Of a DNA stretch of 64,000 nt, positions 3,200 through 55,713 are shown piece after piece. Source of the DNA: a virus. Below the pieces are notes generated by a model. It saw only the letters and a program-made list of their open reading frames with translations. It did not search any database and had not been told where the DNA came from. Every line of letters begins with the position of its first letter. Position 1 is the first letter of the stretch. A program made the position numbers and the translations under genes. Location: the IMG/VR virus record IMGVR_UViG_3300025012_000003, one strand, 5' to 3'.

Positions 3200-3232
3200 A
3201 ATGTATCTCCTATTGCTTAACCTTATATACTT

Positions 3233-3284
3233 AGGTTATCATATATAAGATATGAATACAAGTGTTTGTAAAGTTATTGTTACA
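3233..3284 (-). promoter_or_regulatory. sigma70-type promoter TTGTAT-17-TAACCT (extended -10) with upstream TGTAA-N8-TTACA palindrome
   Basis: -35 at 3256-3261, -10 at 3233-3238; palindrome 3267-3284. Confidence 0.65.
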
Positions 3285-3287
3285 ATA

Positions 3288-3428
3288 CTACTCGAGTTCT
3301 ATGTAGAAAGATATCCTATCTATAACTTTCTTGATTGCTCTTCTCATATCGTCGTCTTGTCTGTATCCGTATTCATTACTGAACTGAGTCAGGTCTTTCT
3401 TCAAAGCAGTTAAATCTTTATCTAACAC
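3288..3428 (-). CDS. hypothetical protein (46 aa, GTG start)
   Basis: AAGGAG RBS then GTG; hand-translated. Confidence 0.55.
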   Translation of the reverse strand: MLDKDLTALKKDLTQFSNEYGYRQDDDMRRAIKKVIDRISFYIELE

Positions 3429-3824: not shown

Positions 3825-4070
3825 TTAACCGAATATTCTCAAAGTTCTGTAATCATTATAGTTATACTTAATATCTTGATAAATAGGTTTACCCTCAGAA
3901 GTTTTTGATTTATGGGTAATAGTTTTAATAGTATCTTCTTTAAGATATATAGCTTCTACTGAAGGACTGACAATTATATTAACTTCTTTATTCTTAAGTT
4001 TAGGAACTATGCCTTCTTGTTTTTCTATTAGGCTTACTACTTGTCTTAATTCTGTTAAACTCAGATACAT
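3825..4070 (-). CDS. hypothetical protein
   Basis: AAGGAG RBS. Confidence 0.7.
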   Translation of the reverse strand: MYLSLTELRQVVSLIEKQEGIVPKLKNKEVNIIVSPSVEAIYLKEDTIKTITHKSKTSEGKPIYQDIKYNYNDYRTLRIFG

Positions 4071-4080
4071 AATTGTCTCC

Positions 4081-4425
4081 TTAATCTACATTTAATACCT
4101 GTAATATTCTGTTGAGTTCTGCTTCAACTCTCTCTTTGAATTCGTTAGCTACTTCAGCACAATCATAATCAAAAGCAGGAATCCAACCTTCTCTTCCATT
4201 TTTCATTCCACGTTTAGTACCTCTATAATCACTTGTAAAACAAGGTAGAGGTTTTATTGGTGATAGTTTATTAACTACTATATTCTGATTACCTATTAAA
4301 GTAACTACAATATTAACACAAGATATTAAATTATAATCCCCATCCTTATAAGTTTCTTTTTCAGTTGTAACAGAAATTACTGCTACTTTATTTATTATAT
4401 TATTAAATATCTTTTCATAATTCAT
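4081..4425 (-). CDS. hypothetical protein
   Basis: GGAG RBS; own promoter at 4462-4490. Confidence 0.75.
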   Translation of the reverse strand: MNYEKIFNNIINKVAVISVTTEKETYKDGDYNLISCVNIVVTLIGNQNIVVNKLSPIKPLPCFTSDYRGTKRGMKNGREGWIPAFDYDCAEVANEFKERVEAELNRILQVLNVD

Positions 4426-4461
4426 ATTGTGTCTCCATAATCTATTTCGGTACTAATAATT

Positions 4462-4490
4462 AATATAGCATGTATGAAATAAGAAGTCAA
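4462..4490 (-). promoter_or_regulatory. sigma70-type promoter TTGACT-17-TATATT (extended -10)
   Basis: Exact 17 nt spacing, TG motif, 36 nt upstream of the ATG at 4425. Confidence 0.7.
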
Positions 4491-4542
4491 CATATTGTTA
4501 AAATTTATTAAGCTAAAGGTTTACTAGCGAATTAAACATATT

Positions 4543-4820
4543 GAATATAAAGAAAAAGCTTGATACCTTGACTATTAGTCAGCGGGTGGCAAGCTTACAA
4601 GAAATAGATTATGGAGATAATTGTAATAAAATGTGGGATTTTGTATCAACACGTCCCTGAAACCCCACGAAAATCGAGCCGTGGAATAGAAAGCTACAAT
4701 CTACCACGCACTGATTCAATCCTTGAACCAGTGGCTAACCTGTTGGTAGTACTCTAAAGTTTTAAGTACCCGCTACCTCGGAGCACTGTACACATATAAT
4801 AGTCAAGCTTTCTTATATTC
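4543..4820 (-). ncRNA. candidate structured non-coding RNA or cis-regulatory element, family unknown
   Basis: ORF-free, GC-richer intergenic block with a long closing stem (4543-4577/4797-4820), nested stem 4581-4587/4768-4774 and at least four internal hairpins; G.U pairs favour the minus strand. Confidence 0.55.
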
Positions 4821-4921
4821 TATTACATGCCGTTATACTATTACTATTGTTTTAAAGAAACTAATAGAACCGATAAACTATTAGAATGAGTGTATAGCAA
4901 TATAGAAGTTGTTATCGGTTT

Positions 4922-5191
4922 TTATTCTTGAGTTATTACTATCTCTTTAGTTATGATACCATCGTTTGACATTACCAGAATAGAATCAATGTCATCTATT
5001 AGTTTATCATTACTTATAGGTATTGCTATCAGTTGTGGCATAGGAGGAATCTGTCTCAACATAGTATGTGTTTTAATTCCTCTAGGTATGAGTTCTTTTA
5101 TCTCCCCTGCTTTTACTAATGTGTTTGCAAGTTTTATTAACTTCATTACTTCTGGTTCATTGTTATTTAAAGTGAGTACTATTCTTTCCAT
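4922..5191 (-). CDS. hypothetical protein
   Basis: AAGGAG RBS. Confidence 0.7.
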   Translation of the reverse strand: MERIVLTLNNNEPEVMKLIKLANTLVKAGEIKELIPRGIKTHTMLRQIPPMPQLIAIPISNDKLIDDIDSILVMSNDGIITKEIVITQE

Positions 5192-25519: not shown

Positions 25520-26857
25520 TTATACAACAATTTTAATTATGGTCTTATTAGAACAAAGTTTATCATGGCTCTTAGCATTATAAGCTTCTATCTCTGTAGT
25601 AACATCATAGCCTACAACATCTTCGTAATTTTGCAAGTCCACCTTAATTATATCTCTATTCTTATTCTTATAAAAGATTCCTATATTCTGAGAAGCTCTT
25701 CCCGATAATTGTAACCCCCTGTCAGAATAAGCGTTTTGACCACACATACTAGCTGACCTACTATAATTATCGGATACACAAGCTTCGTGTAAATGTCCAC
25801 TAAGTACATAGTCTATAAAAATTCCATCGTAAGCATACTTGGCTACAGCCTTCTTAATTCCATTAGCTAAGTCTGATTTAAATTGGTGCCCGTGAATTAA
25901 TAGAACGTTATTTCCAGCAACATCTATAACTTGTTCTAGGGGGTCTTCTAAATGGAAAGACACTGAAGAAGAACCCATGAATCTAGCATTTAACATATTG
26001 TACAACATTAAGTCATAGTTGTCTGAAGCTATAATATCTGTCCATGCAATATCTTTAGCCATACGAGTTTCATTACCTGTTACTCCACAAAAAGTAATCT
26101 TAAAATCCTTATTCAAGTCAAGTATGAACTGTGATAATAAACTTGTAGCAAGTAAGCAAGCTTTCATTCTATTAGTAGCATTGTTCAATAGTTTATCAAG
26201 AATATCATCTTTGTTAAGTAAATCCCCAGTAGAACAGATAGCAACACTCTTAATACCGTTTAATTTAAAATAACTAACTGCTCTTTCTGCTAACAACTTC
26301 AATCTCTTAGAAGCAATATGAAAGTCATATTTGTTATTTTTTAAATTAATTAACTCGTTGAAATGCAAATCAGATAGTTGAATGATACCCATACAATCAG
26401 AACTTACATTGGTATGTTTAATAGTTTTCTCAGATAACTTAATACTTTTTAATAACTGTATTAATTCTAAGTTAGATTCCTCTAACGCATTAGTTAATCT
26501 ATCCTCGTGTCTAATCCCCTTACGTTCTATTCTATTAATGTCTTGAAGTTTTTGAACCTTACGTCTTAATTGTATATTAGCAATTAAAACATCTTCATCT
26601 ACTTCCTTCTCTATGTCTTCTTTTAATTCTTGTTGTTTTTTCTTAGATAAATCAGAGGGGTATATTCCAGACTTAGATAATTCTAAAACTAACTTATCTC
26701 TGTATTCAGAACTAAAGAACATGTTAATATCATTAGTCGTATACTCATTAGATATCTCTCTTATCCTTTTTCTCCAGTAACTTCTTCCCCTGTATTTACC
26801 TTCTGAGATACACCCTTGATACAATAACTCAAAAAGATTTTCAAATTTTTCCATCAT
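25520..26857 (-). CDS. calcineurin-like metallophosphoesterase with helical N-region
   Basis: SDLH, TGD, GNE(T), HGH, GHLH. Confidence 0.8.
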   Translation of the reverse strand: MMEKFENLFELLYQGCISEGKYRGRSYWRKRIREISNEYTTNDINMFFSSEYRDKLVLELSKSGIYPSDLSKKKQQELKEDIEKEVDEDVLIANIQLRRKVQKLQDINRIERKGIRHEDRLTNALEESNLELIQLLKSIKLSEKTIKHTNVSSDCMGIIQLSDLHFNELINLKNNKYDFHIASKRLKLLAERAVSYFKLNGIKSVAICSTGDLLNKDDILDKLLNNATNRMKACLLATSLLSQFILDLNKDFKITFCGVTGNETRMAKDIAWTDIIASDNYDLMLYNMLNARFMGSSSVSFHLEDPLEQVIDVAGNNVLLIHGHQFKSDLANGIKKAVAKYAYDGIFIDYVLSGHLHEACVSDNYSRSASMCGQNAYSDRGLQLSGRASQNIGIFYKNKNRDIIKVDLQNYEDVVGYDVTTEIEAYNAKSHDKLCSNKTIIKIVV

Positions 26858-55622: not shown

Positions 55623-55713
55623 AGTATCTCCTTTAGTTTTATAATTAAATGATAACAAAAAGAAGACTATATTTCAAGTCTTCTTCTATTACTTTGTTAC
55701 AATTATTTACAGA

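Follow-up and report, generated by a model that had tools for sequence, protein, structure and literature searches.

A plausible phage RNA with a stretch complementary to the ribosome-binding site of the neighbouring gene

What is the role of a GC-rich stretch devoid of genes in the accessory region of a large phage genome? The stretch in question (positions 4543-4820) belongs to a 64,000-nt window, the whole piece of DNA analysed here, which corresponds to bases 95,994-159,993 of an IMG/VR phage record that is 190,151 bp long and has direct terminal repeats. The source phage is of the myovirus type, with genes for tail sheath, family-A DNA polymerase, DnaB-like helicase and ligase. The element is housed in a gap of 496 nt between two minus-strand genes, 4922-5191 (89 aa) and 4081-4425 (114 aa), and family searches with both proteins returned no known family. 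The initial annotation had described the block as ORF-free and GC-enriched, and both properties were borne out. The longest ORFs are 48, 39 and 36 aa, and single-base indels among relatives disrupt all frames. GC content is 0.41-0.46 at 4575-4799 (0.46 at 4650-4799) compared to 0.21-0.29 just beside the block, about 0.27-0.31 in its broader surroundings and a mean of 31% for the 190-kb genome (sd 0.05 in 150-nt windows). A protein-coding remnant is ruled out by the frame-breaking indels together with start codons that are not conserved. A small plus-strand ORF behind an inverted copy of the downstream gene leader was also considered and rejected, its ATG being missing in one of the relatives (L017).

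The block does not belong to a known RNA family, in agreement with the earlier remark that it could not be matched by eye to tRNA, tmRNA, RNase P, SRP or a riboswitch. A search of the whole window against Rfam 15 (4227 families) at the gathering threshold produced no match. At E≤10 over positions 4300-5000 there was likewise nothing in the element, and the two matches outside it are chance ones (Ref84, 23.7 bits vs a cutoff of 52; mcrA, 12.5 vs 57.6). ARAGORN detected no tRNA or tmRNA in the window. Using blastn with 11-nt words, we found no match to the element in 50,697 deposited phage genomes. Exact 17-19-mers from four of its conserved parts, searched in viral, metagenome and prokaryote collections, led beyond the seed only to the same phage clade. 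Homologue searches with three neighbouring proteins also retrieved only near relatives, whose contigs yielded the variants L018, L118 and L116, and a search for relatives with the DNA polymerase produced four contigs at 96-100% identity, one of which was searched in its entirety. The related contigs originate from groundwater and sediment metagenomes. Altogether, only five sequence variants of the element are available, all from groundwater or sediment phage contigs and 92-99% identical: the window type (also in L116 and L119), L118, L017/L002/L120, L016/L015 and L018/L019.

The initial annotation argued for an RNA encoded on the minus strand, and this reading is reasonable. The terminator described below is canonical on the minus strand only, the consensus fold includes nine G.U pairs, four one-sided changes among the variants preserve pairs only on the minus strand (via G.U), and 339 of the 360 crude ORFs of the genome have the same orientation. 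Folding energy is less informative. The block does fold better than dinucleotide shuffles, though only moderately, and there is no strand preference (z of -2.77 for the minus and -2.71 for the plus strand).

To obtain a consensus fold, RNAalifold was applied to four variants, giving ten helices, of which H3, H5, H6 and the terminator are robust (pair probabilities of 0.8-0.95). This fold differs in part from the one put forward at first, a multibranch domain closed by two nested stems. The inverted repeat thought to join the ends of the block (4567-4577 / 4797-4807) exists and is perfect over 11 nt, but the end-to-end closure appears in the single-sequence minimum free energy structure of only two of the four variants. 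This long-range stem competes with two other pairings that use AGCTT-type motifs. Since such motifs recur in the element, several mutually exclusive long-range pairings are possible. The 7-nt inverted repeat proposed as the second stem (4581-4587 / 4768-4774) is likewise present in the sequence, but suffers two uncompensated changes in L018 and is missing from the consensus fold. The nested multibranch model is unsupported by the five variants. As for the individual hairpins, 4709-4733 is present, whereas 4633-4668 is a possible alternative to the consensus helices H6 and H7, the changes in L017 fitting either arrangement. Covariation, suggested earlier as a check, is not significant: a single pair out of 67 is compensatory, and the covariation score obtained from five variants at least 92% identical to each other is equalled or exceeded in 97 of 500 shuffles. 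The sole compensatory change, from A-U to G-C in L016 and L018, falls in helix H1 (4806-4813 with 4688-4695). Variable sites are depleted in paired columns (p 0.004) of the fitted consensus only, and not in independent single-sequence folds.

Judging from the sequence signals, the block is plausibly a minus-strand non-coding RNA of ~265 nt, which would run from 4813 to 4549 and end at an intrinsic terminator. Its predicted 5′ structured domain (4688-4813) is closed by H1 (pair probability of 0.79) and would hold hairpins H3 (4765-4787; 0.7-0.8) and H5 (4709-4733; 0.9) together with a small hairpin at 4735-4749. Taken by itself, this domain has a folding z of -2.7. It is followed by two GC-rich hairpins in the predicted fold, H6 (4662-4687; probability 0.90) and H7 (4635-4657; 0.75), although the segment comprising them (4635-4687) has a z of only -1.5. 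Next comes an AU-rich linker (4597-4634), mostly unpaired in the consensus fold. The terminator consists of a hairpin at 4556-4596 (7 + 3 + 4-5 bp) and a U-rich run at 4549-4555. It has a folding energy of -15 kcal/mol (z -3.25), which none of 200 shuffles equals, and is invariant in the variants except for two loop positions. Seventy bases past the terminator lies a sigma-70-type early promoter with an extended -10 (4462-4490, minus strand; TTGACT, 17 nt, TATATT, with TG before the -10), which is conserved in all relatives as a part of the same module. The pattern TTGACN, 16-18 nt, TANNNT occurs at 44 sites in the genome, many of them with TG just before the -10. This promoter would drive gene 4081-4425, the candidate regulated gene on the minus strand, whose leader with a GGAG ribosome-binding site occupies 4426-4455 and whose start codon is at 4425.

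Where would the RNA start? Upstream of it on the minus strand neither the early (TTGACA..TGnTATAAT) nor the late (TTATATTATAWWTAG) promoter motif was found. Of the features used to recognize small-RNA genes, the element thus has the 3′ Rho-independent terminator and lacks its own promoter directly upstream. In L018 the upstream gene has its stop codon directly adjoining the element, so there the block appears to be transcribed together with that gene. Based on this arrangement and on the absence of a canonical promoter, the RNA is probably the tail of the upstream early operon. At the end of gene 4922-5191 there is a weak AU-rich minus-strand hairpin with a short U run (4854-4884; 7 bp, 4861-4867 / 4878-4884; -4.6 kcal/mol, z -2.6), conserved in L016 and L017 and absent in L018, which would be a leaky terminator at best. 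Homology with all relatives begins at 4812-4831 (minus strand), and this boundary is possibly a processing site or the 5′ end of the RNA. Inside the RNA, a promoter-like site on the minus strand (4620-4649; TTGATA, 18 nt, TACAAT; 10 of 12 matches) has its -10 in the variable stretch of the linker, and this -10 exists only in the window-type linker. If used, it would speculatively give a ~65-nt transcript running from the complementary stretch described below to the terminator. The idea that this internal site is tied to the presence of gene 4081-4425 is weakened by L118, which has the linker and not the gene.

Two further types of upstream sequence were noted in the window. The late-promoter-like motif TTATATTATAWWTAG is strongly conserved 30-45 nt before the start codons of the structural region on the minus strand, for example upstream of genes ending at 26857, 40847, 48370, 53158, 55197 and 62177, and is distinct from the early sites. 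A repeated cassette of ~90-100 nt, found on the minus strand at 3200-3290 and 1915-2014, and also near 55,700 and at several places outside the window, contains TGTAACAATAACTT.., an ACTTG box and a shared leader TATAAGGTTAAGACAAGGAGA. It precedes several unrelated small genes and may represent a third promoter class or a shuffling unit.

The only handle on the function of the element is provided by the AU-rich linker. On the minus strand, 17 nt of it (4601-4617) are perfectly complementary, in inverse orientation, to the leader and Shine-Dalgarno sequence of gene 4081-4425 (4432-4448). The first description of the block, whose reading as an unknown and probably minus-strand RNA holds up, had overlooked this complementarity as well as the terminator and the downstream promoter. 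None of the five variants has a change in the anti-leader stretch, although the adjoining parts of the linker vary, every variable site lying outside an invariant 20 nt. In the predicted minus-strand RNA its mean unpaired probability is 0.66. The duplex between the anti-leader and the leader (-25.2 kcal/mol) is the best among 359 start regions (mean -11.4, sd 3.8), and gene 4081-4425 is the one outlier among 28 early-promoter leaders tested for complementarity to their own upstream 300 nt (z -4.0). The 27 other early leaders have no such complementarity, ruling out a general habit of the phage to hide ribosome-binding sites. Nor is the 17-mer a leader motif common to many target genes, since no other site in the genome comes within two edits of it. 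For a transcript reading through the terminator, the Shine-Dalgarno sequence is predicted to pair with the anti-leader with a probability of 1.00, compared to a paired probability of 0.34 in the promoter-proximal mRNA.

The target side of this pairing is not conserved. Relatives without gene 4081-4425 have a changed leader with no compensation: in L016 and L017 a deletion and a substitution reduce the pairing to 8+5 bp (-16.6 kcal/mol), and the leader of L018 is far more divergent (-8.0 kcal/mol). For these relatives, pairing between the Shine-Dalgarno sequence and the anti-leader is predicted at ~0, and the former is predicted to pair instead with the transcribed -35 region. The invariance of the anti-leader may also reflect too little time rather than selection, as all copies are near-identical.

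Taken as a whole, the element is a plausible new regulatory RNA of the phage, its function being read from predicted pairing. The reading we favour, with a confidence somewhat short of even, is that of an operon-tail RNA with an exposed arm able to cover the ribosome-binding site of the neighbouring gene. According to this model, transcripts of the upstream early operon would end in this RNA, which would then either stay attached as a 3′ UTR or be released by cleavage as a stable small RNA. It would comprise a folded 5′ domain rich in GC, a single-stranded linker rich in AU and a Rho-independent terminator. The invariant stretch of the linker would pair with the leader and Shine-Dalgarno sequence of the downstream gene and thereby exert antisense regulation. 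Messengers started at promoter 4462-4490 would have a free ribosome-binding site, because the promoter sits between the two complementary stretches. Conversely, the terminated RNA acting in trans, or a transcript reading through the terminator and acting in cis, would mask the site and block translation. If the pairing acts at all, action in trans would be favoured over action in cis, because an efficient terminator separates the anti-leader from its target. Transcription of the block, the position of its 5′ end, the fold of the 5′ domain and a pairing that represses translation are all inferred. The large folded domain may give stability to the RNA or bind a protein.

A close known counterpart of such an arrangement is found in phage T4, where the ribosome-binding sites of genes e, soc, 49 and I-TevI are sequestered, and the genes thereby silenced, in long early transcripts, whereas transcripts begun at the proximal promoter are translated. 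The sequestering structure is a local hairpin with the late promoter located between its strands (PMC3014915). Here, the anti-Shine-Dalgarno stretch (4601-4617), the promoter (4462-4490) and the Shine-Dalgarno leader (4432-4448) follow in the same order. However, the two strands are separated by ~150 nt that include a terminator, the proximal promoter is of the sigma-70 early type, and the anti-Shine-Dalgarno strand is embedded in a 265-nt structured RNA. In addition, the pairing is perfect only in variants carrying gene 4081-4425 and is not conserved among relatives.

Base-pairing RNAs derived from 3′ UTRs and sharing the terminator of their mRNA are known in bacteria (CpxQ, SroC and DapZ), and RNAs of Firmicutes such as RNAIII and RsaE target Shine-Dalgarno sequences. 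With these RNAs the element shares the lack of its own promoter, an origin at the operon end, a Rho-independent terminator and a single-stranded pyrimidine-rich seed complementary to the Shine-Dalgarno sequence. It differs from them in being phage-encoded, and has no sequence or Rfam relationship to any of them. Compared to typical 3′-UTR-derived small RNAs, it is also much larger, and no strong target other than the adjacent gene is predicted for it. Among phage RNAs, P1 c4, P4 CI, P22 sar and lambda OOP have regulatory roles, and several such RNAs pair with a nearby ribosome-binding site or leader. Stable RNAs C and D are known from T4 (mentioned in PMC3014915). The element resembles all of these as a phage-encoded structured non-coding RNA, but is not homologous to them. 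They are shorter and come from defined promoters or from tRNA-cluster processing, whereas the element sits in an accessory early region.

Comparison of the relatives revealed that the element belongs to a conserved module set among exchanged genes. Between the window and L018, identity over 4456-4835 is 92.4% vs 79-84% for the flanking genes, and the 383 nt of the module contain 29 differences, whereas a divergence like that of the flanks would give ~65. In the comparison with L016, the module is 93% and the flanking genes 85-89% identical. Flanking genes have been exchanged on both sides with the module retained, and the breaks in homology fall at the module edges. For example, the upstream neighbour is a 99-aa cysteine-rich gene in L016 and the 56-aa gene mentioned above for its stop codon in L018. 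Downstream, gene 4081-4425 is present in the window, L116, L105 and L106 and absent in L016, L017, L018 and L118. In relatives lacking the gene, the same promoter and a hybrid leader are placed directly on the homologue of gene 3825-4070. In the window, near-identical leader/ribosome-binding site sequences (4071-4095 and 4426-4450) bracket gene 4081-4425, which fits gain or loss of the gene by leader-leader recombination. Two independent short ENA metagenome contigs with gene 4081-4425, L105 and L106, break off at the 3′ end of the RNA, which suggests a branch in the assembly graph, with strain variants having the RNA in common and differing in its flanks.

These observations also agree with an alternative explanation, according to which the locus is primarily a cassette boundary. 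The conserved terminator and early promoter would then insulate early genes and serve as a crossover point for swaps, the folded 5′ part would stabilise the 3′ end of the upstream mRNA, and the 17-nt complementarity would stem from duplicated leaders. Units of this kind are on record in T4-type phages, where small promoter-early/stem-loop (PeSL) units recur in variable genome regions (PMC2839356, PMC4122927). The element is like them in that a conserved intergenic terminator and early promoter are surrounded by variable accessory genes and indels stop at the edges of the unit, and the exchange of genes on both sides, the bracketing leaders and the ends of contigs L105 and L106 are all as expected for such a boundary. 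However, PeSLs are small and recurring, whereas the unit described here is ~400 nt long, single-copy by nhmmer and contains an additional 200-nt GC-rich folded domain, which a boundary leaves unexplained. It likewise does not account for the invariance of the 17-mer amid varying neighbours or for its perfect inverted match, because duplication of a leader by recombination gives the other orientation. We regard the cassette boundary as a sufficient explanation to be possible but rather improbable.

According to another explanation, also doubtful, the structured RNA has a main job other than pairing, being a protein scaffold or decoy (a host RNA-binding protein, a nuclease or a defence sensor are suggested targets) or a ribozyme, with the leader complementarity secondary. 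The folded domain indeed far exceeds the needs of an antisense regulator. In GC content and conservation it surpasses the rest of the element, with long stretches invariant across the variants, and the RNA stays intact in relatives that lost the target-side pairing. Moreover, the apical loop of H5 displays GGA in a CAAGGAU context, which we take to resemble CsrA-type binding sites (SELEX consensus). However, this is the only good GGA loop, whereas known CsrA sponges have many GGA sites. None of the 4227 Rfam families matches even at E≤10, covariation defines no conserved three-dimensional core, and there is no linked gene for a partner protein, the neighbouring genes being without family and variable among relatives.

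In a more far-reaching reading, the block would be the first representative of a new class of large regulatory RNAs of phages made from the end of an early operon, in which a folded domain binds a host or phage factor, an exposed anti-Shine-Dalgarno arm silences an accessory early gene, and the RNA travels with the terminator and promoter that define the cassette. We consider this full reading unlikely at present.

It is very improbable that the block acts at the DNA level, either as a mobile element of the miniature inverted-repeat type (intact or as a remnant), or as a site for a replication or recombination protein, with the AGCTT-type motifs and terminal inverted repeats serving as protein-binding or transposition signals. 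The terminal inverted repeats do span ~24-35 nt with one indel, and three full AAGCTT sites occur in 260 nt vs ~0.09 expected from base composition (the genome has 90 in 190 kb). The location among swapped accessory genes would also suit such an element. However, miniature inverted-repeat elements are recognized by multiple dispersed copies with target-site duplications, and here no target-site duplications were found at the element. Neither BLAST nor nhmmer detected a paralogue in the 190-kb genome, the 158-kb relative has a single copy as well, and every genome having the element carries one copy at the same locus. In addition, no copies were found outside the clade in the viral, metagenome and prokaryote collections, and the strand-specific terminator and G.U pairs indicate an RNA. 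The weakest explanation, a functionless remnant that derives from a gene or from foreign DNA, is decaying, folds by chance and was kept through recent divergence, would suit the folding z of only -2.7, the insignificant covariation and the identity of at least 92% among all copies, but is hardly compatible with a module clearly better conserved than the adjacent protein-coding genes, with the well-formed terminator at its end and with a complementarity to the adjacent ribosome-binding site that is perfect over 17 nt and an outlier in the genome. Thus, given the single-copy fixed locus, the strand-specific terminator and the conservation above the coding level, both a mobile DNA element and a functionless remnant are unlikely.

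If the proposed regulatory RNA is real, a large uncultured phage from groundwater has a regulator that belongs to no known RNA family. The RNA would also extend T4-style hiding of the ribosome-binding site from long transcripts to an unrelated phage, acting over a long distance and from within a stable RNA, and would tie the shuffling of gene cassettes to a conserved RNA-terminator-promoter unit. Practical value is limited, as the regulated protein is without known function and the family consists of a few near-identical phages.

In some relatives the RNA is followed, ~0.5 kb further downstream, by the gene of a 175-aa protein containing a sigma-70 region-4 domain (L016:3944-4471; also in L117, L118 and L120), which is not at the corresponding place in the window.

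The element is among six non-coding GC islands of the genome, the others being a cluster of tRNAs with a permuted tmRNA, a small-RNA candidate with promoter and terminator, and three islands at the left end. The tRNA cluster (genome ~70,060-71,555, locus L104, outside the window) contains 16 Rfam tRNA matches, one of them just below the gathering score, and also encodes a permuted two-piece tmRNA (98 bits on Rfam RF04321 vs a cutoff of 47). At the left genome end (1-1,692, locus L099), ~1 kb of ORF-free sequence downstream of an early promoter holds the three GC-rich islands, which have no Rfam match. The remaining island, on the minus strand at genome 40,537-40,771 (L101:338-572), ~55.3 kb before the window start, is a second and clearer small-RNA candidate of ~235 nt. 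It has no Rfam match and folds with a z of -3.95. Its own sigma-70 promoter with an extended -10 is followed by two terminator hairpins and then by the promoter of the next gene, and the candidate is 97% conserved in the 158-kb relative.
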